From positions 1 to 35,785 of the forward strand of contig JAZDMS010000009.1 of NCBI GenBank assembly GCA_043800705.1: a DNA stretch of 35,785 nucleotides. The letters run 5' to 3'. How positions within the stretch are numbered: position 1 is the stretch's first letter; the number at the start of each line of letters is the position of its first letter. The position numbers were made by a program, and so were the translations under genes. Under the pieces are notes generated by a model. It saw only the letters and a list, made by a program, of their open reading frames with translations, had not been told where the DNA came from and searched no databases. The DNA comes from Candidatus Altiarchaeota archaeon. GTDB taxonomy: Archaea; Altiarchaeota; Altiarchaeia; IMC4; SCGC-AAA252-I15. This document shows positions 1,157-26,333 of this stretch, piece by piece.

Positions 1157-1212
1157 GTTGCGGCCGCGTCTTTTATTGTAATAATTGAATATTTTATTCC
1201 TTAGTGGTTGGT

Positions 1213-4200
1213 ATGGTTTCTAAGATACGCAAGAGAGACGGCAAGACGGAGAAGTTCAACAAGCAGAAGATCGCTGAGGCGATCCACAAGGCCATATCGT
1301 CCGTCGAAGGCAGGGACGGTGAGACTGCGGAGAAGCTTGCGGACAAGGTTGTGAAGGCTGTCGACAGGAAGTTCAAGGAAATTGTCCCCACCGTCGAAGA
1401 GGTCCAGGACGTCGTCGAGGAGACGCTGATGGACAGCGCCGAATCCGGCGTCGCCAAGGCCTACATACTCTATCGGGAGGATCGGAAGAAGATAAGGGAG
1501 GCCAAGTCGCTGATGGGCGTCGACGACGACATCAAGCTATCACTCAACGCCATCAAGGTGCTCGAGAAGAGATACCTCATGAAGGATGATGAGGGGCGGG
1601 TCATAGAGACTCCGGGGCAGATGTTTCAGAGGGTCGCCGGCAACATAGCCCAGGCCGACCTGTTGTACGACAAGGACGCGGACGTAAAGAAGACCACCCG
1701 GGAGTTCTACCAGATGATGTCGACCATGGAGTTCATGCCCAACAGCCCCACATTGATGAACGCCGGCCGCGAGCTGCAGCAGCTTAGCGCATGTTTCGTC
1801 TTGCCGGTCGAGGATAGTATGGAGAGCATATTTGAGGCGATAAAGAATACTGCGTTGATTCACAAGAGCGGCGGGGGGACTGGGTTCAGTTTCTCGAAGC
1901 TGAGGCCCAAAGGCGACATTGTGGCGTCGACGTCCGGTGTGGCGTCTGGGCCGCTGTCTTTCATGAACGTCTTCAACGCCGCGACGGAGGTAATTAAGCA
2001 GGGTGGGACGAGGAGGGGCGCGAATATGGCGATTCTAAGGGTCGACCACCCGGATGTTTTGGAGTTCATAGTCGCGAAGGAAAAGGAGAACGTCCTCAAT
2101 AACTTCAATATCTCCGTCGGGTTGACGGAGGACTTCATGAAGGCGGTTGAGTCCAACCAGGAATACGACATGCTCAACCCGAAGAGCAGGAAGCCTATGA
2201 GGAGGATCAGTGCGAGGACGGTCTTCGACCTCATTGTGACGATGGCGTGGAAGAACGGGGAGCCTGGGATCGTGTTCCTCGACAGGATAAACAGGGACAA
2301 TCCTACGCCATTCCTCGGGGAGATGGAGTCGACAAATCCGTGCGTGAGTGGTGATTCGTTAGTGTCCACATCGAATGGTTTGTTGCGGATGGATAAGATT
2401 GCTGAAAGGTTCGGAAACGGAGGAGTGGGGGCCGTGACTGATTGCAGGGTGCCGAAACCGCTAGAAAACGGCAGTGGTATTCTCCTCCAGGTTCAGGAGG
2501 CGGGTGTCGAGCTGAATCAGGTCTCTAAGGCATGGTGCAGTGGGGTGAAGGAGACTTATAGGCTCGTCACAAAATCCGGTTATGAGCTTACAGCCACGTC
2601 AGACCATATGATTCTCACAACTGGCGGATGGTTGGAGCTTCACGATATTGTGCCGGGGAAGCATGCGGTTTTGATACAGGCTGGTAGTGGGTACTTCAAC
2701 AAGGACACAAAAATCGGCTTCGTTGTCGAAGACGATTATAAAGGCGGCAATGGCAGGAGCTACCGCCATAATTTCCCCAAGACATGGTCTAGGGAGCTTG
2801 GTCAGGTTCTGGGATGGCTTGTCGGAGATGGCTGGCTAAGGGAGGGGGACGCCGATCGGAGGGTCGGTTTCACATTCGGCTCTGATGACTCGGAGGTTTT
2901 GGAGTATTTGAAGCCCGTATTGGACGGCATGTATGGACGCGATGTGAAGGCGGTTATCCGAAAAGGCGGCGTGATACATCTCAGCTATCATGGAAAATAC
3001 TTCGTCGACTACTTTAAGAAACTTGGTGTACGGGGTGTCGGTTCAGCGGAAAAAACAGTTCCTGAAACGCTCTACTCAGCGACGGAAGAGGCTGCTATCG
3101 GGTTCCTGCAGGGTTTGTTCACCTCTGATGGGACTATCCGGGATAATCCTAAATCCAACAGCTCATGGATTGCTCTGACATCAAAGAGCAGACATTTATT
3201 GCGGGGCGTGCAGCTACTTCTTCTGAATCTGGGCATCAAAAGCCAGATTTTAACTAGGAGCAGGCCGCCCAGAACGGGGTTGTTCGAGTATACGGATAAA
3301 AGCGGGCAAGTGAGACTGTATGGATCGGATGGGGTGCTTTTCGAGTTGGGGATATTCGGCGAAAGCAGAGAATTGTTCAGGAAGCGTATAGGTTTCATCA
3401 GCAGGCGCAAGCAGGAATCCCTCGACAACATACGGTTTAAGACGTTCAGGAAAACAGACTGGAGCGATGAGGTGCTGTTCGTCGAGAAATCAGGGCAAAT
3501 TGCGGTTTATGATTTGACCGAACCATTGACGCATTCGATGATAGTCAACGGCATAGTAGTTCACCAATGCGGCGAGCAGCCGCTTTTGCCGTATGAGGCG
3601 TGCAACCTCGGTTCCGTTAACCTCTCCAAGATGGTGGACGGCGGCCAGATCAACTACAAGAAACTCAGGCGGGTTGTCCATGTCGCAACCCATTTCCTCG
3701 ACAACGTCATAGACATGAGCAAGTTCCCCTTGGACAGGATAGAGAAGATGGTGAAATCCAACCGGAAGATCGGTTTGGGGGTCATGGGCTTCGCGGACAT
3801 GCTCGTCGAATTGGGGATACCCTACAACAGCGACCGGGCCGTTGAGGTGGGCCGGGAGGTTATGAAGTTCATAGACGGGGAGTCCAAGGCGACGTCGGTC
3901 GAATTGGCGCAAAAGAGGGGTTCGTTCCCCAACTTCAGAAAGAGCGTCCTGCCGCAGAAGGGGCTCAAGCAGATGAGGAATGCGACGACCACGACGATCG
4001 CGCCGACGGGGACGATCAGCATCATATCCAACTGTTCGGGCGGGATCGAGCCGCTCTTCGCCATCTCATTCATCAGGAACATCCTCGACAACACGGAGAT
4101 GCTCGAGGTCAACCCAATATTCGAGCGGATCGCAAGGGAGCGGGGCTTCTACAACGACGAGCTGATGAGGAAGATCGCCAAGAGGGGGACGATACAGGAT

Positions 4201-4572
4201 ATAGCGGAGATACCGGAGGATGTGCGGAAGGTCTTCGTTACGGCACATGACATCTCGCCGGACTGGCATATCCGGATGCAGGGGGCGTTCCAGGAAAGCA
4301 CCGACAATGCTGTGTCGAAGACTGTGAATTTCGCGAATCACGCGACGACGGATGACGTACAGAAGGTCTATCTGCTCGCGTATCACCTTGGCTGCAAGGG
4401 AGTGACGATCTATAGGGACGGCTCCAGGAGCAATCAGGTCCTGAACATAGAGGCTGTGAAGAAGTCGGCGGCTTCGCAGGAGAAATGCCCTGAATGCGGG
4501 GGGAGCATGACCGTCGAGGAGGGCTGCAGCACGTGTCACAACTGCGGGTTCTCCTATTGCAGCGCAGCATAG
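1213..4572 (+). CDS. nrdJ: Adenosylcobalamin-dependent (class II) ribonucleotide reductase with N-terminal ATP cone, intein-containing
   Basis: ATP cone (IRKRDG..FNKQKI), FMPNSPTLMNAG, QLSACFV, GGTRRGANM, NP/CGEQPL split by an intein, TIAPTGTIS, KGVTIYRDGSR and a C-terminal CxxC..CxxC. Start at ATG 1213, or GTG 1204. Confidence 0.97.
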   Translation: MVSKIRKRDGKTEKFNKQKIAEAIHKAISSVEGRDGETAEKLADKVVKAVDRKFKEIVPTVEEVQDVVEETLMDSAESGVAKAYILYREDRKKIREAKSLMGVDDDIKLSLNAIKVLEKRYLMKDDEGRVIETPGQMFQRVAGNIAQADLLYDKDADVKKTTREFYQMMSTMEFMPNSPTLMNAGRELQQLSACFVLPVEDSMESIFEAIKNTALIHKSGGGTGFSFSKLRPKGDIVASTSGVASGPLSFMNVFNAATEVIKQGGTRRGANMAILRVDHPDVLEFIVAKEKENVLNNFNISVGLTEDFMKAVESNQEYDMLNPKSRKPMRRISARTVFDLIVTMAWKNGEPGIVFLDRINRDNPTPFLGEMESTNPCVSGDSLVSTSNGLLRMDKIAERFGNGGVGAVTDCRVPKPLENGSGILLQVQEAGVELNQVSKAWCSGVKETYRLVTKSGYELTATSDHMILTTGGWLELHDIVPGKHAVLIQAGSGYFNKDTKIGFVVEDDYKGGNGRSYRHNFPKTWSRELGQVLGWLVGDGWLREGDADRRVGFTFGSDDSEVLEYLKPVLDGMYGRDVKAVIRKGGVIHLSYHGKYFVDYFKKLGVRGVGSAEKTVPETLYSATEEAAIGFLQGLFTSDGTIRDNPKSNSSWIALTSKSRHLLRGVQLLLLNLGIKSQILTRSRPPRTGLFEYTDKSGQVRLYGSDGVLFELGIFGESRELFRKRIGFISRRKQESLDNIRFKTFRKTDWSDEVLFVEKSGQIAVYDLTEPLTHSMIVNGIVVHQCGEQPLLPYEACNLGSVNLSKMVDGGQINYKKLRRVVHVATHFLDNVIDMSKFPLDRIEKMVKSNRKIGLGVMGFADMLVELGIPYNSDRAVEVGREVMKFIDGESKATSVELAQKRGSFPNFRKSVLPQKGLKQMRNATTTTIAPTGTISIISNCSGGIEPLFAISFIRNILDNTEMLEVNPIFERIARERGFYNDELMRKIAKRGTIQDIAEIPEDVRKVFVTAHDISPDWHIRMQGAFQESTDNAVSKTVNFANHATTDDVQKVYLLAYHLGCKGVTIYRDGSRSNQVLNIEAVKKSAASQEKCPECGGSMTVEEGCSTCHNCGFSYCSAA
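2341..3567 (+). mobile_element. 409-aa intein with LAGLIDADG homing endonuclease, inserted at the RNR active-site NP|CGEQ
   Basis: Begins CVSGDSLV after ESTNP. Block B LTATSDH; endonuclease motifs LGWLVGDG and FLQGLFTSDG; block F VYDL. Ends NGIVVHQ followed by +1 Cys (CGEQPL). Confidence 0.95.
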
Positions 4573-4588: not shown

Positions 4589-5173
4589 ATGCCATTGAAT
4601 AAGCGCAAAGGCCTCGTGCACGTTTACACGGGAGACGGGAAGGGGAAGACGACGGCATCGGTCGGCCTCGCACTGCGTGCCGTCGGGCACGGGATGTCCG
4701 CGTATATGATACAATTTCTTAAGGGTGGGGGGCATTCTGGCGAGGCCATAGCGGCTGAGACCGTATTGTCCGAGAGGTTCAAGGTCAAACAGTTCGGGAA
4801 ATCATGCCCCTATAGCCAGGAGATGAGGAAGGGGACGATGCAGTGCGGCAACTGCAAGGACTGTTTCCTGTCGAGGAAGGAGGAACGGGAGAAGGTTGGT
4901 GAGGCGCTTGATCTGGCTGAGAAGACGGTATCGTCGGGGAAATACGACGTCGTCATATTGGATGAGGTGAATAATGCCGCCAGCAGGAAGCTTGCGTCCA
5001 TTGCCAGGGTACTCAAGATAATCAACTCGAGAAAGCCCCACGTCGAGGTCGTACTGACCGGTAGGAACGCTCCCAAGGAGCTTATAGAGGCGGCAGACTA
5101 CGTCACCTTCATGAAGAAGGTAAAACACCCGTTTACGAAGGGGATACGTTCAAGGTACGGGATAGATTATTGA
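4589..5173 (+). CDS. cobO: ATP:cob(I)alamin/corrinoid adenosyltransferase (CobA/CobO/BtuR family) with Cys-rich insertion
   Basis: GLVHVYTGDGKGKTTA, QFLKG, ILDEVN, VLTGR, ADYVT, KHPF..G..GIDY. SD GGAGG upstream. Confidence 0.95.
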   Translation: MPLNKRKGLVHVYTGDGKGKTTASVGLALRAVGHGMSAYMIQFLKGGGHSGEAIAAETVLSERFKVKQFGKSCPYSQEMRKGTMQCGNCKDCFLSRKEEREKVGEALDLAEKTVSSGKYDVVILDEVNNAASRKLASIARVLKIINSRKPHVEVVLTGRNAPKELIEAADYVTFMKKVKHPFTKGIRSRYGIDY

Positions 5174-17696: not shown

Positions 17697-18899
17697 CTAA
17701 CCTAGACCTAGATAATAGGAGATCGTCGGGACTAGGAGTACGCCCATCAGGTGGGTTCTGCTGACCCCTGAGAGGATGGGCAGAAGGCCGACTGCCGTGC
17801 ATACGAGCGCGACGAGGATTCCGAACAGGCCCGTGAATGCATAGACCAGCGCCAGGACGAACATGATGACGCCCGCTGACATCAGTCGGTGGTCCACCAT
17901 CCCGTAAAAAACCGAAGCCCTCCTGCCGATCTCCATGTGCAGGTGGGCGGCGAAGAATGCGACAAGACAGAAGACGCCGACGAATAGCGTGAGCGTATCC
18001 GCGTCCAGTTCAAGCATCCTCCCGAGCATCACCGACATCCCGCTCCTGCCGTTGCCGATGATGTAAAGCGCGGCAAGGGAATACAATGAATCCGATGCCT
18101 GGATGGCGGCGACTGAAACCAGGAACCCCCTCTGGCTCGCGCCGAACACCCCGCTCATCAGTATCCCCACCTGTGACGGGCTCATCGCCGGCAGCAATCC
18201 GACTACAGCCCCGCCGACCGCCCCAAGTAGACCGCCGCCGACGATTTCGGCATCGACTTTCGTCGTGGAATATCTCTCCTGCGGTATGTTCGCCTCGGAC
18301 ACCATAAGCGAATATACGAGGCCGCTCACGCCGAACAGGCCGGAAAAAACCGGGAACAGGACATACGTTGCCGACATCCCCTCGATCCCCAAAGTCAGGA
18401 CGCCGACGCAGCCTGAGAGGAGGAAAATGACGGCTGCCCACATCTTTCCCCCTCCCCTCTCACGTAGGATCAGAATCAATGACGCGGCTCCGATGACATA
18501 GACGACGAACTCGCGCAGCTGCCGATAGAACATCGGCACGATTATTATCATCGGGACAAGAAGCGTAAGCCCAAAGACAAGGCCGATGAGGCATCCGTAG
18601 CATGTCAGCTTGACAGCATCCAATCCCCTTCCGGCAAGCACGAGCCGATGGGCGGGGAGTATGCTCAAGGCTGTGCCTTCGTCCGGCACGCCGAGGAATA
18701 TGCCTGGGATGAAATCCAGGAAGGTGTGGGTCACGCTGACCCCGACCATGAAGACTCCGAACCCGACCACGTCCAAGCCGAACCTCGAATATAAGCCCAG
18801 TCCGATGAGACAGACCGTATTCACATGGAGCCCCGGAGTCAGCCCGGTGACTACTCCGACCGCGCAGCCTGCCAACGCATAGACCAAATATTCAAGCAC
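17697..18899 (-). CDS. TctA/DUF112-family membrane protein (archaeal type)
   Basis: GVVTGLTPGLHVN, HTFLDFIPGIFLGVPD, LPAHRLVLAGRG, FSGLFG, VSRTHLMG. Start placed at GTG 18899; the ORF is open to 18962. Confidence 0.9.
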   Translation of the reverse strand: MLEYLVYALAGCAVGVVTGLTPGLHVNTVCLIGLGLYSRFGLDVVGFGVFMVGVSVTHTFLDFIPGIFLGVPDEGTALSILPAHRLVLAGRGLDAVKLTCYGCLIGLVFGLTLLVPMIIIVPMFYRQLREFVVYVIGAASLILILRERGGGKMWAAVIFLLSGCVGVLTLGIEGMSATYVLFPVFSGLFGVSGLVYSLMVSEANIPQERYSTTKVDAEIVGGGLLGAVGGAVVGLLPAMSPSQVGILMSGVFGASQRGFLVSVAAIQASDSLYSLAALYIIGNGRSGMSVMLGRMLELDADTLTLFVGVFCLVAFFAAHLHMEIGRRASVFYGMVDHRLMSAGVIMFVLALVYAFTGLFGILVALVCTAVGLLPILSGVSRTHLMGVLLVPTISYYLGLG

Positions 18900-19063
18900 A
18901 ATAGGAAGCCGAAGCCAAACCCTATAAATCGGTATAGTGCACAATAGTACTACAATCTTCACATGCTTTCATCGCAGACATGACCCCCTATTGCTCCTAC
19001 CACTGAGCCTGATGCTTTTCTTCTACTGCGACCATACTGTAACCCCACCTGGGTGATTTTTCC

Positions 19064-19537: not shown

Positions 19538-20152
19538 TTAATTTATTAGTTGTTTGATTATTGCATGGAACTCATCTTCTTCCATGTCCGGCCTGTTCCT
19601 AACATAGTACCCATTTCCTATCCTCGTAAACCTGCAGCCGAAGCTGAAATAGGGTACGGTGGTGCTTTTTCCGTCGCGGAAAACATCCACTTCGCTTTCA
19701 GGGATCCCGGATTCGTTACATTCCGTCAGGGTGTCGTCATCCTTGTCGAATATCCAATGATATGCGACTATGCTTCCCGCATCGACGTAATCCCTCGCCA
19801 ACTTGTCGAATATCGGCCCGCTCCAGTTGCAGTGTTCGCAGTCGGAGCGGCCGTACATCCTGATCACAGGCTTCCCGTCTATCCTACAGATCGGACGATG
19901 TGTATCCTGAAATGTCATAATCAGCGGATCCAATGTCGTGGACGTGGTCAAATAAGGTCCAATATCCGGGATCATAGCCGAAGAAGCGAGTGTAGCCGTA
20001 GTCGTCGACGGAACCGCATATGCGAACTCGTCGCCTGTCGTGGTCGTGGGCTCGGGAAACGATGTCGTCGTGGTCGTCTCCAAGCCGGCGTCGGGGCCCT
20101 GAACGCACCCGCAGACTAACAGGACGACGATGAGCGCCCAAAAAAATCTCAT
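19538..20152 (-). CDS. Thioredoxin-fold secreted or lipid-anchored protein with Thr-rich linker
   Basis: Signal ending LLVCGC (lipobox-like), TTTTT linkers, CEHC motif and a cis-Pro-type TVP. Confidence 0.8.
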   Translation of the reverse strand: MRFFWALIVVLLVCGCVQGPDAGLETTTTTSFPEPTTTTGDEFAYAVPSTTTATLASSAMIPDIGPYLTTSTTLDPLIMTFQDTHRPICRIDGKPVIRMYGRSDCEHCNWSGPIFDKLARDYVDAGSIVAYHWIFDKDDDTLTECNESGIPESEVDVFRDGKSTTVPYFSFGCRFTRIGNGYYVRNRPDMEEDEFHAIIKQLIN

Positions 20153-20256
20153 ACGAAACAAACGTTTTTCAACCATATAAATCCTCGGGCTCCCCGGGCA
20201 GCATCCCCCATTTTTTACCTTTGCGGAACAATACCTATCGGTCCAAACGTATTGAG

Positions 20257-22449
20257 ATGAAAGTCCAAAAGAGCAACAAGCAGCTGGTGAGCTTTAACCG
20301 CAACAAGATCATACAGACATGCATGTCCGCGGGGTCGACGTTGAAGCTAGCGTCCCAGATAGCCTCCGAAGTCAAGGGCGAAGGATACGGTGGCATGACG
20401 ACCGACGAGATACGGATGCGCGTCTACATAAAGCTCAAGAAGATCAACCCCGACATGGCGGAACAGTACGTCTACCGCTCCAACATGAAGGTCCGGACGT
20501 CTGCGACCGTCGTCGAACCCTTCCTGTCATCGAAGATCGTGGACTCCCTAGTGAACGAGACATTCGTCGATAGGTCCTTCGCCGAAGCAGTGGCTAAGGA
20601 GGTGGAGAAGGAGCTTGGCAGGATGCGGCTTAACTACGTCACCGCCCCGCTGATTAGGGAGATAGTCAACGTCAAATTGCTAGAACATGGAATGGAGTCC
20701 GTGAGGGCGAGGTATACGCGTCTTGGGATGCCGGTCTACGACGTGAAGAAACTTCTGGAGGAGGGTTCAAAGGACATTGCCCAGTACAGCCCGGAGGCGG
20801 TTCACAGGGTGATGAGCGACCAGATCGCGCGCGAATACGCGCTAATAAACATTCTGCCTGTGGACATAGCCGACGCCCACATGTCCGGCCAGATACACAT
20901 ACATGACATCAGCCATTTCTCTCTGAGGCCGACGACCTTCTCCCACGACCTTAGGTTCTTTCTGAGGCGGGGGCTGACGGTCGACGGAAGCGGGGAATAC
21001 ACGGCGACCGCCGGCCCGGCGAAGCATCCGCAGTCCGCCTTCATGCACGCGCTCAAGGTCATGGTGGCCGGGCAGACGGAATGCTCCAGGGAGCAGTATA
21101 TCGAGGACTTCAACGTCCTTCTTGCGCCGTACGTCGTCGGCCTGGGCTACAACGAGGTCAAGCAGCTAGTCCAGACTCTGTTCTACGAGGTCTCCCAGAC
21201 ATCCGTTGGCAAAGGGGGGCAGGCCATATATGCGGCCCTCGTCTGCGACACGTCCGTTCCGAAGTACTTGACGGACATGGACGCGGTGCAGCCCGGCGGA
21301 AAGGTCCAGAAGGGTGTGTGCTACTCGGACTACTCGGGGGAGGCTCAGATGATATTGGATGCGATGCTCGACGTCAGCCTCGACGGCGACTTCCTGCGCA
21401 AGCCCTTCATCTACCCGAAACTTCTCCTGAACGTCATACGCATGCCGTCGGACGGGATGATGCAGAAGATATCAGACCTTTCCATCAGCTTCGGGGCGCC
21501 GTATTTCCTGAACACCGGCAAACACATGCACGGGCACCGGCGCGGATCGATACAGCATGTGACCATCAACCTCCCCCAGGTCAGCTACAAGAAGGGGGGC
21601 AACCTATTCGAAACCCTTGATAATAGGATGAAGAATGCCTTCGAAGTCCTGCTATTGAAGAAGACGGTGATGGAGAAGAACCTGGAGAGGAATCTCCTCC
21701 CGTTCCTAAAGCAGAAGGCCGCGGGCCTCAGGTACTACAGCCCCGAAAAACAGGGCTACACGATATCATACAGCGGCCTGAACGAGTTGGCTCTGTTGGA
21801 GACGGGGTATGATCTTCGCTCAAAATCCGGGGCGAGGTTCGGCAAGAAGGTTTTGAAGTCGATGATGAAGACGGTCGAGGGCTTCAGGCGGGAGAGCGAC
21901 CTGGATTTCATCCTCTCCGGGACCCCGAAGGGGATATGTTACGCAACGTTCGCGGCCCTCGACGCCGCGAGGTTCGGGGACAGGGCCAAGGTGAACGGGG
22001 GAGGCAGCCCCTACTACAGTAAGACCCATTATGTGAATGGAAAGAACCTCTCCGAGAAGCTCAGGATCGAGGGGCGGTTCAACAGGATTCTCAACGGAAG
22101 GACCCTGACTCACATCAGGCTCTCCGAGAGGGTGCAGGACGACGGCGACCTGTCCGGGCTGATATGGAAGCTCCTTGAGCGCAAAGACGTCGGATATTTC
22201 ACGTTCTCTCGCGCCCTCACCGTCTGCGGAAGGTGCGGCCACGTCCAGACGACCATCGCAGGAAAATGCGGGAAGTGCAGAAGCCGCCAAGTCAGCGTCT
22301 GGAGCCGGGACACCGGCCACCTGCAGAACATACGGACCTGGAGCCCGGCCAGGCGGCAGGCGTTCGTCGACGAATACAGGTACGACGCGAAAGGAAGAGG
22401 CCTGAGACTGTCCGCCAAGCAGGCCAACCTTATAAAAAACTACGGCTGA
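20257..22449 (+). CDS. nrdD: Anaerobic (class III) ribonucleotide reductase homologue with two ATP cones; catalytic residues appear degenerate
   Basis: Two ATP cones, TAPLIREIVNVKLLEHG, YTRLGMPVYDV, ADAHMSGQIHIHD, KPFIYPK, TINLP, CxxC..CxxC and SRDTGHL at the glycyl-radical loop position. Confidence 0.85.
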   Translation: MKVQKSNKQLVSFNRNKIIQTCMSAGSTLKLASQIASEVKGEGYGGMTTDEIRMRVYIKLKKINPDMAEQYVYRSNMKVRTSATVVEPFLSSKIVDSLVNETFVDRSFAEAVAKEVEKELGRMRLNYVTAPLIREIVNVKLLEHGMESVRARYTRLGMPVYDVKKLLEEGSKDIAQYSPEAVHRVMSDQIAREYALINILPVDIADAHMSGQIHIHDISHFSLRPTTFSHDLRFFLRRGLTVDGSGEYTATAGPAKHPQSAFMHALKVMVAGQTECSREQYIEDFNVLLAPYVVGLGYNEVKQLVQTLFYEVSQTSVGKGGQAIYAALVCDTSVPKYLTDMDAVQPGGKVQKGVCYSDYSGEAQMILDAMLDVSLDGDFLRKPFIYPKLLLNVIRMPSDGMMQKISDLSISFGAPYFLNTGKHMHGHRRGSIQHVTINLPQVSYKKGGNLFETLDNRMKNAFEVLLLKKTVMEKNLERNLLPFLKQKAAGLRYYSPEKQGYTISYSGLNELALLETGYDLRSKSGARFGKKVLKSMMKTVEGFRRESDLDFILSGTPKGICYATFAALDAARFGDRAKVNGGGSPYYSKTHYVNGKNLSEKLRIEGRFNRILNGRTLTHIRLSERVQDDGDLSGLIWKLLERKDVGYFTFSRALTVCGRCGHVQTTIAGKCGKCRSRQVSVWSRDTGHLQNIRTWSPARRQAFVDEYRYDAKGRGLRLSAKQANLIKNYG

Positions 22450-22487: not shown

Positions 22488-23765
22488 GTGAACACCCAAA
22501 GATACCAGTCCTGGGATAGTCCCCGCTGCCAGATACTGAAGTCGATGGCGAAGGCCAGGCCGATGAGCAGGCAGATGTGCCTCCAATGCAAAGGCGGCCG
22601 TCTATTGTGCGGCCATCGGTCGTGTCCGCTTCTTGCGAAGATAGACCTGCAGAATCCCGTGCAGGAGCGCCTCAAGGAGGAGATGTTCGGGCCTTCCACG
22701 TCGGTGTTCGTCGGCTGGAAGGACTATCCGAGCGTCTACGTCGGGCCGATGACCGCGGTGGACCGGGAAGGGATCGGCGTATTGGACAATCCGGGCGAAT
22801 GGTACGGCCTCGGGTTCGACGACATCGTCGGGATGCGTTCGATGCTTGTGCGCGGCAGGCAGAAGCATCCCGTGGGCGAGCGCAGCCCGTTCGTGTCGAA
22901 GATGCAGGAGCTCGCGCTCTCCGTCAGGCCGGTGGACGTAGAAACTCACTACACGAAACGGCCGCATTTCAGCATGTCGTTCTCCCCCGTGAGCCAGCCG
23001 ATGGGGGCGTCCGGGGAGATAAGGAGCGTCGACATAGTCGACAACCCGGTGATTCCGCGCAAGGTCGACCACGTGGTCAACGACGAACTTCCCGCATCCG
23101 AGCAGATATCCACCCTCTTCGACCGCAGCTTCGACGTCTACTATCTCTCCAACGTCCTGTCATCCGGCGTACTCGGACAGTCGGAATCGAAGCGGATGGT
23201 CCCGACGCGCTGGGGCATAACCGCGGTCGACGACATGCTCGGCCGAAGGCTCATGAAACGGATAAGAGACCACCCGGAGGTGTCGGACTACGAGGTCTAC
23301 TCGAACACGTACCTGGAGAACCACTTCGAGATACTCCTCATCCCCGGGGCGTGGGAGTTCGAGCAGTTCGAGGCATGGAGCCCGAACACCCTCTGGACCA
23401 TGTCATACGATTCCCCTGCCATCGTGGCGGAGCATGAGGCGCACAAGGGCAGATGGGACTACGCCTACAACGAGGGCGGAGGATACTATGCGGGGAGGTT
23501 CGCGGTAGCGGAGGCCTTGGACCGGATGAGAAGGCAGGCGAGGGCAATCGTATTCAGGGAGATCTACGACGGCTACATCATGCCGGTCGGCGTGTGGGAA
23601 GTCAGAGAAAACGTCAGGAAGGCGATGGAGAAGAAGCCTAACAGGTTCGCGACACTGAAGGGGGCGCTCTCGGACGCGGGCTCGAGACTCATCATAAACA
23701 TCCGCAAATACGCGGAAAAATCCCAGATACTCAGGCAAAGGAGGATAACGGACTACCTGAGATGA
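22488..23765 (+). CDS. nreA: Nre family archaeal DNA repair protein (DUF650/DUF651) with C-terminal PIP box
   Basis: CLQCKGGRLLCG..CP, VFVG..YPSV.VGP, MVPTRWGITAVD, GGYYAGR, PVGVWEVRE and PIP box QRRITDY. Confidence 0.95.
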   Translation: MNTQRYQSWDSPRCQILKSMAKARPMSRQMCLQCKGGRLLCGHRSCPLLAKIDLQNPVQERLKEEMFGPSTSVFVGWKDYPSVYVGPMTAVDREGIGVLDNPGEWYGLGFDDIVGMRSMLVRGRQKHPVGERSPFVSKMQELALSVRPVDVETHYTKRPHFSMSFSPVSQPMGASGEIRSVDIVDNPVIPRKVDHVVNDELPASEQISTLFDRSFDVYYLSNVLSSGVLGQSESKRMVPTRWGITAVDDMLGRRLMKRIRDHPEVSDYEVYSNTYLENHFEILLIPGAWEFEQFEAWSPNTLWTMSYDSPAIVAEHEAHKGRWDYAYNEGGGYYAGRFAVAEALDRMRRQARAIVFREIYDGYIMPVGVWEVRENVRKAMEKKPNRFATLKGALSDAGSRLIINIRKYAEKSQILRQRRITDYLR

Positions 23766-23840
23766 TATCCGGAATCGGCGCATCGGACGGTCTGCAATGC
23801 CGTGTACCCGCATATTAGGTTGTCCTTCCAGTTGGTGTAT

Positions 23841-26333
23841 ATGCCCGCGCTAAGGGAGAATAAAGGCAATCCCCATAAGCCCCTTGAACTTTTTGTCCAT
23901 ATAGACGAGCGCAGGGACGCGCAGTTGGACCGTGCGTTATCGGGTATGGCCCCTCTGGCTTCGCATCCATTTCTTCGAGACCACGTCAAGGACGTCCTGG
24001 GCAGGATAGGCGCATCCGAGCTCGAGAGCCTCGGACGCAACTTGCACGGGCAGGAAGGGACGAGAGGGGTGGGGGTCAGCATCTTGGCATACCTTTCAGA
24101 GAACAGGCATGAGGAGCTTGGCGCAGGCAGGACGCAGGAGCTGAGGTCGCTCCTCGCTGGAGAGGACCATCGACATGTCGAAGAATACGAGCATACCCTC
24201 CATCAGTACCTTGAAATCAGATCTAACGGATTTTTTCTGGATGAGGGGCGGAAAGTCGTGGCCCAGGATGCGACCGAAGAAGTCAAAAAAGGCGGTCTGA
24301 GGATGGATCTCATCCTCGGGGGCGAAGAAGATAAACCAAGCTATTACGTGACCGGAGTCGGTGCCGGTAGCGTCTCGTTTTTCGAGATCGGGCCCGGGGG
24401 GGACAGCGCGAAAATGACGGTCGCGGACTCTGACCGGCTCATGCAGCTTGTTACGGGGGGCGGCTACCGTGCATATCAGGTGACTGACGGGCGGGGCAGG
24501 TATTACACGGATGTTGTCGAAAACAGGCAGAGATTCATGTGGGATCCGCTCGATTCGGAAAGGGATTTGGGGCTGACGAGGGCGGCTGCAGCAGGATTGA
24601 ACCGGGGAGAAAAAGTCAGGGATGCCGCCTTGGATTTGGATCTTATGGGCGAGCGCCTGCTCATAGCCGCAGGGAGGGAGGAATCTAAATATCAGCAACC
24701 GCGGTGCAGGCTGCTTACCGATGTGGAAAAGGACCCGCGCGGTGACGGATATCTCAGGCTGACGAACGTGAGAGTCGCGGAAATTTTAGGGCCGAACGGT
24801 TCCGTGACGCCGATCGGGATCAAGACGCTCCTCGACTCATTGAACGGGGAGACGCTCGTCTGCAGGTCGGCCGAATCCCGTTCCAAACCGGCACTCTTGA
24901 CGCGGGAAATATCCCCCCATCTTCGCGGATACGACATCACGGAAAGGATAGGCTCTGAGGGGTTCTCTCCGGGGATGGTCATCACCGGGTCGGATGAGCG
25001 AATCTCATATGGGGTAGAATATCCGAAGCCGGTCGCATACATCGCCGGCAAAAGCGGGGATACATTCGATGTCCTTGCTTTCGAAGCGGACGGGGTTAAA
25101 CGTTACCGTAACATGAGGGCGGAGGACTTGAAAGCCCTTGTCGAAGCCGGCAGCGGCAGAAGGGTGTATCAGCCCCTTGACATCAACCAGCACACGATGG
25201 AACGCAGCAGGGGCCGGCTCGCCAGGCGGGAAATGACGGAAGAGCTTGTATTGGGGATGGATGACGAAATTCGAAGAAGATTGGATTCCGGGAATACGGT
25301 ACGGCTCAGGCTGAAGGGATTCGTCGACAATTCCGGGGAAATATGTTCGGTGGGGCCTGCAACGAGGCGTTCGGTGTGGGACAACTCCGGATTCGATGCG
25401 TCCGTCGAACTAAAAAAATCGGGTGCCGGAACATATACTGTCTCCAAATTCGAACTGGAGCGGATCACTCACGGGAATATCACCCTAAACCAGGCCATTC
25501 ATTTGGTCGGCTCATTCGAGGATCATCAAGTCTCCGTCCCCGAAAAATATGCGGGCTCATATGTGCCGTCCGCGGCGGAAAAAAATGATTTGGGAACGGA
25601 TTATGAGGGGCGCGCAAGACACTTCAATGTCCGAATGGATGGAGAGACACTATGTTGCCGGAGGCTGAACGCCCAGGAAGTAGACCCAGAATACCTTAAT
25701 CGGTTGAAGGGCATGGAAATCGAAAGGGAGGCAGATTTCGGCCAGGTAAGGTTTCCCAACGCCACTGGCTGGAGGGGCAGATATCTCGGCGGAGGGGAGG
25801 AAAAGGACATATTCCTAGTAGTCGACGATAAAAACCGGGCATTTTCAATGGTTTTCAGGGACCTAGAGTCCGCCAAAATCAACCACCATGGAACAGACGA
25901 CTTCTACTCGATCGGATCCGTCGCAACCACCGTCAAAGTAAAGGGCGAACTCGGAGAAAAGACCGTCATCAGGGGATTCCAGGTCAGGGAATACGAGCAC
26001 GGATACTCGGGGGGCGAGATACCCTTCATAGAGGGGGCCAAAGGCTGGCGGATGCGTTCGCTTAACGCAGTCGCTTCTATTCCTCACCGTCTGGTCGGGA
26101 GTTTCATGGCATACTGGGAGAGGAAGAAGGTCCTAGATTCCCCACACGCCCACTACCGCCCTGAGGAAACCCACTCCGGCAATTTCATGGTCGTCGAATC
26201 AGACCGCCGAGTGGACGAATTCGGCAGAAAGTATCGGATTCCCCTGCCTGTGATAAGGAAAGGGAAAGACGGCAGAAGCGGGCTGACACTCAGATGGTAT
26301 GATACAAGAGCCCTCGAACTGACAGAATACTGA
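23841..26333 (+). CDS. Large hypothetical protein with an internal ~230-aa duplication and a possible degenerate kinase-like C-terminus
   Basis: Uninterrupted ~830-codon ORF (start ATG 23841 or GTG 23802); no family recognised with confidence. Confidence 0.7.
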   Translation: MPALRENKGNPHKPLELFVHIDERRDAQLDRALSGMAPLASHPFLRDHVKDVLGRIGASELESLGRNLHGQEGTRGVGVSILAYLSENRHEELGAGRTQELRSLLAGEDHRHVEEYEHTLHQYLEIRSNGFFLDEGRKVVAQDATEEVKKGGLRMDLILGGEEDKPSYYVTGVGAGSVSFFEIGPGGDSAKMTVADSDRLMQLVTGGGYRAYQVTDGRGRYYTDVVENRQRFMWDPLDSERDLGLTRAAAAGLNRGEKVRDAALDLDLMGERLLIAAGREESKYQQPRCRLLTDVEKDPRGDGYLRLTNVRVAEILGPNGSVTPIGIKTLLDSLNGETLVCRSAESRSKPALLTREISPHLRGYDITERIGSEGFSPGMVITGSDERISYGVEYPKPVAYIAGKSGDTFDVLAFEADGVKRYRNMRAEDLKALVEAGSGRRVYQPLDINQHTMERSRGRLARREMTEELVLGMDDEIRRRLDSGNTVRLRLKGFVDNSGEICSVGPATRRSVWDNSGFDASVELKKSGAGTYTVSKFELERITHGNITLNQAIHLVGSFEDHQVSVPEKYAGSYVPSAAEKNDLGTDYEGRARHFNVRMDGETLCCRRLNAQEVDPEYLNRLKGMEIEREADFGQVRFPNATGWRGRYLGGGEEKDIFLVVDDKNRAFSMVFRDLESAKINHHGTDDFYSIGSVATTVKVKGELGEKTVIRGFQVREYEHGYSGGEIPFIEGAKGWRMRSLNAVASIPHRLVGSFMAYWERKKVLDSPHAHYRPEETHSGNFMVVESDRRVDEFGRKYRIPLPVIRKGKDGRSGLTLRWYDTRALELTEY

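Follow-up and report, generated by a model that had tools for sequence, protein, structure and literature searches.

A class III ribonucleotide reductase homologue of Altiarchaeota stripped of its catalytic residues and conserved as a candidate nucleotide-binding pseudoenzyme

A 35,785-nt stretch of a Candidatus Altiarchaeota archaeon genome (contig JAZDMS010000009.1 of assembly GCA_043800705.1; the whole stretch is referred to below as the window) carries a homologue of nrdD, the gene of the anaerobic class III ribonucleotide reductase (RNR). The locus raises the question of whether the encoded protein can still act as a reductase and, if not, for what it has been kept. The original prediction, made from the DNA letters of the window, took the gene for a catalytically dead paralogue that had lost both active-site cysteines and served an allosteric, nucleotide-sensing or scaffold function. 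Judged by its sequence, the window protein is a pseudoenzyme derivative of NrdD, and it belongs to a conserved group of degenerate NrdDs designated here type A. Coordinates of the features discussed are collected in Table 1.

The gene occupies a single long open reading frame (ORF) at 20221..22449 on the plus strand. Translation could start from a TTG at 20221, giving 742 aa, or from an ATG at 20257, giving 730 aa; the latter is favoured, as homologues begin there. Pfam assigned residues 176–705 to NRDD (PF13597, 6.5e-88), a match that places the protein in the NrdD, or glycyl-radical-enzyme, barrel fold, and recognised the ATP-cone (PF03477, 1.7e-16) in two stretches. The AlphaFold2 model built from a 24-sequence alignment had a mean predicted local distance difference test score (pLDDT) of 79.9 and a predicted template-modelling score of 0.73. 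Its best Foldseek matches were the solved NrdDs 9dca, 8p2s, 4coj, 4u3e and 1hk8, from S. thermophilus, P. copri, T. maritima and phage T4 (target-normalised template-modelling score 0.63–0.70). Confidence was low at the flap remnant (171–181), the specificity hairpin (243–249), loop 2 (317–322) and the finger-loop stump (426–428), with pLDDT below 50 at the first and last of these. Matches in the Protein Atlas were to ordinary NrdD clusters only. All eight NCBIfam NrdD equivalog models matched the window protein, each with a score under its curated cut-off. For TIGR02487 the score was 286.1 bits against a cut-off of 326.35, short of equivalog status for NrdD; another type A protein reached 283 bits, and the canonical Altiarchaeal NrdDs P0030 and P0038 reached 540.1 and 540.9 bits.

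Type A was represented by 29 cluster representatives at 90% identity (P0001–P0029), which are 52–74% identical to the window protein and form one Altiarchaeota clade, and was compared with 35 canonical relatives (P0030–P0064). States of the strand cysteine and the finger loop were read from the 64-sequence alignment; counts at other sites refer to 24 type A proteins. A scan of species-representative genomes with two peptide patterns yielded 30 NrdD loci, the Altiarchaeal metagenome-assembled genomes (MAGs) being incomplete. By motif state, seven loci are type A (L001–L006 and L015), seven are a second degenerate form, type B (L008, L009, L014, L016, L019, L020 and L023), and 16 are canonical. 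Catalytic positions were mapped by tool alignments to the solved NrdDs 8p23 and 9d3x and to T. maritima NrdD. The RPFC cysteine, YQCC finger loop and RITGY glycine of P0030, the closest canonical relative, align with their equivalents in 8p23 and 9d3x, and the canonical finger loop was mapped onto the MGCR cysteine of 9d3x. In a phmmer alignment, the strand cysteine of T. maritima NrdD lies opposite Thr227 of the window protein and its RIVGY opposite RDTGH.

Both active-site cysteines are missing from type A. The strand cysteine is present in 35/35 canonical proteins and missing in 29/29 type A proteins, which have Thr, Ser or Ile instead and never Cys; in the window protein this stretch reads RPTTFSHD (224–231), following HIHD at 214–217. 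The finger loop that carries the thiyl-radical cysteine is likewise present in all 35 canonical proteins and is a 26-column gap in all 29 of type A, where the window protein runs PYFLN-TGKHMHGHRR-GSIQHV (415–435). According to the passages of the P. copri NrdD study available to us (PMC11226230), the NxN flap lies over the substrate, the loop glutamate Glu581 is a functional hallmark, and Tyr712, which follows the radical glycine, shows high conservation and a functional link. The equivalents of all three are lost in type A. The flap ENANLQ has become K-D-I-A-Q with a two-column gap in the window and all seven type A loci. The loop glutamate disappeared with the change of PAES to PKG (A558K and E559G, each 24/24). 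At the glycine loop (684–688), Gly687 itself is kept in 24/24 proteins, while the Ile of the motif has become Asp in 22 and the following Tyr has become His688 in 21 or Asn in three. RDTGH does not fit the glycyl-radical motif R-[IV]-x-G-[YFW], and the glycine stands in an R/K/S-D/S-T/S-G-H/N context in all 27 type A proteins in which the C-terminus is present.

Eight defining features of a working NrdD could be checked. The barrel fold, the HxHD motif and the four-Cys zinc site are retained; the finger-loop cysteine, the strand cysteine, the glycyl-radical motif, the NxN flap and an equivalog score are not. With five of eight features failing, the protein should not be filed as a working NrdD, and its sequence makes it very probably dead as an RNR.

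The chance that it is nevertheless an active RNR, or another glycyl-radical enzyme, using Gly687 and a different cysteine appears very small. Gly687 and the zinc ribbon are invariant, HxHD is kept, and Cys276 and Cys561 each occur in 21/24 type A proteins. However, these two cysteines are not invariant, and they are not replacements, because both also occur in canonical NrdD. The only invariant cysteines of type A are the four of the zinc site (24/24 each), Cys22 being present in 22/24; a substitute active-site cysteine was therefore rejected, no non-zinc cysteine being invariant in the 24 proteins. The radical-carrying loop is deleted throughout, none of the flap, loop-glutamate and tyrosine hallmarks remains, and the score lies below all eight NrdD cut-offs. 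A reductant-like gene is missing as well. A thioredoxin-family gene of 121–123 aa (PF13192, CPxC) lies directly 3' of canonical NrdD in nine loci (L011, L012, L013, L017, L021, L024, L025, L026 and L028), but was found in 0/7 type A loci, 0/7 type B loci and nowhere in the window. Among 45 homologues of this gene, eight could be assigned to contigs with canonical NrdD and none to contigs with degenerate NrdD, assignments that follow from matching base counts.

Residues K5, K17, Y71 and R74 of the ATP-cones are invariant in type A, and HxHD, the motif that binds triphosphate in P. copri NrdD according to the same passages of PMC11226230, persists. The elements of the specificity site were mapped via alignments to 8p23 and the description in the available text of PMC11226230. 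The specificity hairpin, the Y310/E311/Q314 helix, loop 2 and cone 2 are equally conserved in type A, type B and canonical proteins.

Selection was compared among eight genes (the window gene and those of L001–L006 and L015), giving 28 pairs. Reading frames are intact in all eight. The proportion of nonsynonymous differences (pN) was 0.20–0.33 and that of synonymous differences (pS) 0.57–1.0 in every pair; the ratio of the corresponding substitution rates (dN/dS) was 0.10–0.23 in the 12 pairs with finite dS, the other 16 being saturated in dS. Mean column identity within type A is 67%. The window NrdD is 67–71% identical to those of L001–L004, compared with 68–73% for the neighbouring NreA and 69–71% for B3_4. 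The degenerate NrdD is kept by selection and is not decaying. It thus combines homology to an enzyme family and loss of the catalytic residues with purifying selection and conservation across species, as a pseudoenzyme does, and it is almost certainly functional in some way. That it is a functionless relic turning into a pseudogene would fit the piecemeal loss of modules among sister lineages, type B having shed the glycyl-radical domain and type A the finger loop. Intact frames in 8/8 genomes and 29 cluster representatives, the low dN/dS, the mean column identity, 25 newly fixed sites and a T-rich, promoter-like box upstream in 6/8 loci make this extremely improbable. The box (CATTTTTTAC-like) is found at about 20209..20219 of the window, 45–55 nt upstream of the start codon, is conserved in the window, L001–L004 and L015, and may be an archaeal TATA element.

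On these points the original prediction was borne out. It had named the absence of both cysteines, the reading RDTGH in place of R(I/V)xGY, the retention of both ATP-cones, barrel and zinc site without frameshift, death with respect to known class III chemistry, and, as a check, losses shared by orthologues with dN/dS below 1. It did not name the loss of the NxN flap, of the loop glutamate or of the tyrosine that follows Gly687.

Constraint has moved within the protein to the ATP-cones, the specificity-site elements and the HxHD motif. Mean identity in cones 1 and 2 is 0.68 and 0.78 in type A versus 0.49 and 0.68 in canonical NrdD. The relation is reversed in residues 521–640 and in the glycyl-radical domain, with 0.48 and 0.49 in type A versus 0.75 in canonical NrdD. 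Sites with at least 90% conservation in canonical NrdD that are relaxed in type A number 28 in residues 521–640, 13 in residues 301–420 and 12 in the C-terminal domain, with none in residues 1–160. A further 25 sites are conserved in both groups with a different residue in each. These switched sites cluster in the former active-site motifs (N275E, G278R, G279E, S283E, A558K, E559G, F591H and I685D).

Such a pattern looks more like a remodelled pocket than like decay. It could mean that the protein became a non-radical nucleotide enzyme, for instance an allosterically controlled hydrolase of (deoxy)ribonucleoside triphosphates that uses the retained HxHD together with newly fixed Glu, Arg, Lys, Asp and His residues (N275E, G278R, G279E, S283E, A558K, I685D, F591H and His688). 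The new charges, however, may merely fill the space vacated by the finger loop, and neither Pfam nor NCBIfam matched the window protein to any hydrolase family; we consider this explanation unlikely.

The genomic context shows where the gene came from. The order TctA (minus strand), NrdD, NreA, TrkH-TrkA (minus strand) and B3_4 is common to type A, type B and canonical loci. Type A is the positional orthologue of canonical Altiarchaeal NrdD, to which the window protein is 38–44% identical. The two peptide patterns detected no second NrdD locus in the seven assemblies with type A, namely WJMO01, CAZPLO01, JBFYKH01, JBDRLL01, CAYXON01, CAYREE01 and JAPKXP01, which are incomplete MAGs. The paralogue reading was rejected on these two grounds, synteny and the lack of a second locus. 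Accordingly, the allosteric or sensor function originally proposed gains some support from the retained allosteric parts, which fit nucleotide sensing, but not as that of a paralogue kept beside an active NrdD.

In a quick tree of 78 sequences, type A formed one clade and types A and B together another, both with a Shimodaira–Hasegawa-like approximate likelihood-ratio support of 100. A more careful tree of 33 sequences, built without the finger-loop and C-terminal columns, gave 100/100 for type A and 100/100 for A and B together, and made P0066, a type B protein, the sister of the type A clade (96/96). An approximately unbiased (AU) test on this tree rejected a clade of type A and canonical proteins (p = 0.003). 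In the tree of the neighbouring NreA, loci with canonical NrdD are split from those with a degenerate one (96/93). Two of the canonical loci have two tandem NrdD genes each (L017, 5794..10583; L021, 2153..6990), one with RPFCFSHD and one with RPFCENHD; in these the RPFCFSHD copy is followed by the thioredoxin-like gene.

The position directly upstream of nreA had been singled out in the original prediction, and the gene is indeed there. The adjacency is ancestral, being shared with canonical and truncated forms, and is therefore not special to the dead form. NreA follows directly 3' in 7/8 type A loci including the window (L005 lacks it) and in 6/7 type B loci, and lies within 3 kb downstream in 5/16 canonical loci. 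The gaps between nrdD and nreA measure roughly 20–70 nt in the degenerate loci; in the window, where nreA begins 38 nt downstream, the two are probably co-transcribed. It is this constancy that would speak for a scaffold or partner subunit, for example of repair complexes of NreA and PCNA or of the class II reductase NrdJ, in which bound nucleotide has no signalling role. The same adjacency holds for canonical NrdD, L005 does without nreA at this place, and the strongest constraint falls on nucleotide-binding modules rather than on a new surface, so a scaffold role is quite unlikely in our estimate.

The absence of an adjacent activase gene, which the original prediction had also stressed, is correct as an observation and carries no weight. 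No NrdG-like ORF was found in the 35.8-kb window (35 ORFs by Pfam, and a CxxxCxxC scan), but canonical Altiarchaeal loci equally lack an adjacent NrdG-type activase (no Fer4_12 match), and the argument was rejected on this ground. The radical S-adenosylmethionine ORFs at these canonical loci are two: that of L017 is generic and abuts the downstream thioredoxin gene, and that of L010 is a BATS-domain protein 2.3 kb away. A NrdG-like gene (Fer4_12/radical S-adenosylmethionine) stands beside nrdD only in Methanocella locus L030.

Another source of deoxyribonucleoside triphosphates (dNTPs), which the original prediction did not mention, is encoded in the same window. Its nrdJ gene, for a class II RNR dependent on adenosylcobalamin, exceeds the cut-offs of NF006417 (1029.5 bits, cut-off 961) and TIGR02504 (735.9 bits, cut-off 400), and the predicted NrdJ is likely the working dNTP source. 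It is adjoined by a gene for a cobA/BtuR-type corrinoid adenosyltransferase, which scores 150.8 bits with TIGR00708, under the cut-off of 167.75. NrdJ homologues without an intein, 78–82% identical, occur on contigs of 536,761 and 253,456 bases, and these appear to be the contigs that carry type A in L004 and L003, respectively. The window NrdJ (P0296) itself contains a 409-aa LAGLIDADG intein (residues 377–785), inserted exactly in the NPCGE finger-loop motif, and because of this location the catalytic thiyl cysteine is also its +1 extein residue. The last two residues of the intein are His-Gln, which is unusual, the common ending being His-Asn; over the exteins, the intein-less homologues are 79% identical.

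Taken together, we think it rather probable that the gene product descends from the class III RNR of Altiarchaeota, has no catalytic activity and acts as a nucleotide-binding sensor or regulator. For nucleotide sensing or regulation as the function, taken on its own, the balance is about even. Its radical machinery has been dismantled, and dNTPs can be supplied by the B12-dependent NrdJ. In the mechanism we propose, ATP or dATP and dNTPs would still be bound at the retained allosteric sites, and a triphosphate might perhaps be bound at the remodelled former active site. The protein would then report on or regulate the nucleotide pool without turning nucleotides over. Candidate output partners are nucleic acid, NrdJ and the repair protein NreA, whose gene is probably co-transcribed.

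Several points weigh against this proposal. Nucleotide binding by type A is read from sequence, and the roof glutamate of cone 1 is Val in 21/24 type A proteins, so that nucleotide binding by this cone may be altered or absent. Type A carries no output domain such as a helix-turn-helix (HTH). A role purely as a sensor gives no reason for the invariance of Gly687 or the conservation of the glycyl-radical domain. Elsewhere in the genome there may conceivably be a canonical nrdD or nrdG, given that the analysis covered 35.8 kb and that the two-pattern scan was run on incomplete MAGs. The grouping submitted to the AU test was chosen with a first tree already in view, and the placement of intein-less NrdJ on the contigs of type A relies on matching base counts.

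The second degenerate form, type B, occupies the same syntenic place. Type B proteins (P0066, P0074, P0080, P0082 and others) are about 690 aa long and lack the whole zinc-ribbon and glycyl-radical domain. They keep a mostly Cys-free finger loop, the cones, HxHD and loop 2, have lost the NxN flap, and score under the TIGR02487 cut-off. Types A and B form one clade with the same nreA synteny, but A lost the finger loop whereas B lost the C-terminal domain. Since some type B proteins keep either cysteine and type A keeps the C-terminal domain, their common ancestor probably had all parts. Most simply, the need for catalysis would have been lost a single time, after which modules eroded independently in A and B.

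Fast alignment was used to classify 191 NrdD-like proteins of 560–830 aa, the counts being approximate for distant sequences: 90 have both cysteines and the glycine, and 101 lack at least one of them. Among the latter is a set from Asgard archaea (Promethearchaeota, Jordarchaeia/Freyarchaeota; P0147, P0165, P0171, P0173, P0188, P0155, P0167, P0225 and P0218), which forms a clade separate from the Altiarchaeal forms. In all nine proteins tested, Pfam detected one ATP-cone and an NRDD domain much more degenerate than that of type A, with a winged helix (DUF7347, HTH_20 or ArsR) as N-terminal DNA-binding domain where cone 1 would be. Both catalytic cysteines and mostly also the glycine are missing, none has a full HxHD, and loop 2 has disappeared or changed, with a GG left in P0167 alone; the zinc site is kept. 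Several of these proteins bear the annotation of an anaerobic RNR, and the score of P0147, 333.9 bits, exceeds the TIGR02487 cut-off. Two more NrdD-like groups (P0135, P0138, P0143, P0144 and P0150; P0158, P0177 and P0178) lack both cysteines and mostly the C-terminal domain; as they fall in other parts of the tree, still more independent losses are suggested.

By analogy, the Asgard winged-helix fusions, which arose independently, give the best hint so far that dead NrdDs may act as regulators, although they are not evidence on the window protein. A broader and doubtful extension would be that archaea repeatedly turned the anaerobic RNR into a nucleotide-pool sensor, with types A and B as early stages without HTH that detect ATP, dATP and dNTPs by way of their cones and specificity site and signal to NreA or the class II reductase, and the Asgard fusions as end-stage transcription factors. 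If this were true, the window gene would belong to an undescribed class of RNR-derived regulators.

Compared with canonical Altiarchaeal NrdD, which has a CC finger loop and the PAES glutamate and which we take to be a thioredoxin-type, NrdD2-like form, type A has the same fold, two cones, HxHD, specificity hairpin, loop 2, zinc ribbon and genomic slot. It differs in lacking the finger loop, the strand cysteine, the NxN flap, the loop glutamate, the tyrosine after glycine and the thioredoxin-like neighbour. The bacterial repressor of nrd genes, NrdR, offers a functional analogy only, as an ATP-cone and zinc-ribbon protein without catalysis. NrdR is about 150 aa long, with an N-terminal zinc ribbon followed by one ATP-cone, whereas the window protein has 730 aa and an RNR barrel and is not a member of that family; no NrdR model is among its ten NCBIfam matches. 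The S. coelicolor NrdR cone is listed among the structural neighbours of the NrdD cone in the available part of PMC11226230.

An RNR large subunit without reductase activity has a class I precedent in HCMV (human cytomegalovirus) UL45, described as an inactive R1 homologue in the portion of PMC5469499 available to us. The betaherpesvirus R1 homologues, UL45 and M45 of murine cytomegalovirus (MCMV), are class I, viral and engaged in host cell-death signalling, and are unrelated to class III or archaea. For class III, we found no earlier report of a conserved non-catalytic form and no description of a degenerate NrdD in full-text literature, subscription journals being outside this scope. The accessible sections of a review of glycyl-radical enzymes (PMC13450708) and of an RNR phylogeny (PMC9531940) do not mention a degenerate class III RNR.

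Other genes of the window provide little further context. A predicted lipoprotein at 19538..20176 (minus strand) has a linker rich in Thr and, towards its C-terminus, a thioredoxin-like region with CxxC; its gene is divergent from the degenerate nrdD, and a counterpart occurs only in the closest type A loci, L001–L004. Between nreA and a flagellin-like gene lies an ORF of 843 aa (23802..26333, plus strand) that is absent from this place in all 30 related loci and gave no Pfam, NCBIfam or PADLOC match and no useful Atlas lead. A defence-system or phage origin was rejected, as PADLOC returned no match. No Rfam family and no tRNA were found in the window.

Table 1. Positions in the window of the degenerate nrdD, its lost and retained elements, and selected neighbouring genes.
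Feature	Position	Strand	Basis or remark
Degenerate NrdD (type A)	20257..22449	+	730 aa; two ATP-cones, NrdD barrel, C-terminal zinc ribbon and glycine loop
ATP-cone 1 (residues 1–75) and ATP-cone 2 (residues 76–160)	20257..20736	+	Pfam
NxN flap remnant, residues 168–181	20758..20799	+	ENAN replaced, two alignment columns gone
HxHD triphosphate-binding motif, kept	20896..20907	+	H214 22/24, H216 and D217 24/24
Thr227 replacing the strand active-site Cys (RPFC to RPTT)	20935..20937	+	Alignments
Specificity-site elements, kept: hairpin 239–256, Y310/E311/Q314 helix, loop 2 G320-G321-Q322	20971..21228	+	
Stump of the deleted finger loop, residues 415–430	21499..21546	+	26 alignment columns missing
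TPKGIC for canonical TPAESC	21922..21939	+	Loop glutamate gone
Zinc ribbon (C657, C660, C671, C674) and glycine loop RDTGH	22225..22320	+	Alignment counts
nreA, 38 nt downstream of the degenerate nrdD	22488..23765	+	Nre_N 6.9e-88, Nre_C 2.9e-33
TctA-family transporter, upstream syntenic anchor	17697..18962	-	Pfam TctA 8.4e-44
nrdJ, class II adenosylcobalamin-dependent RNR, ATP-cone and one intein	1204..4572	+	NCBIfam
cobA/BtuR-type corrinoid adenosyltransferase, adjoins nrdJ	4589..5173	+	PF02572 3.8e-57

RNRs are among the best-studied allosteric enzymes. In a class III form that is conserved without being catalytic, nature has set up an experiment in which the allosteric apparatus of NrdD stands apart from the chemistry. 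The finding also bears on annotation. Degenerate proteins are labelled 'anaerobic ribonucleoside-triphosphate reductase' in several records, and metabolic reconstructions of Altiarchaeota and Asgard archaea may for this reason include, in error, an anaerobic supply of dNTPs that needs no B12. Should the protein bind nucleotides, it would provide a route to sensing of the dNTP pool in archaea, which to our knowledge lack NrdR, and possibly a link between dNTP supply and NreA-dependent repair.

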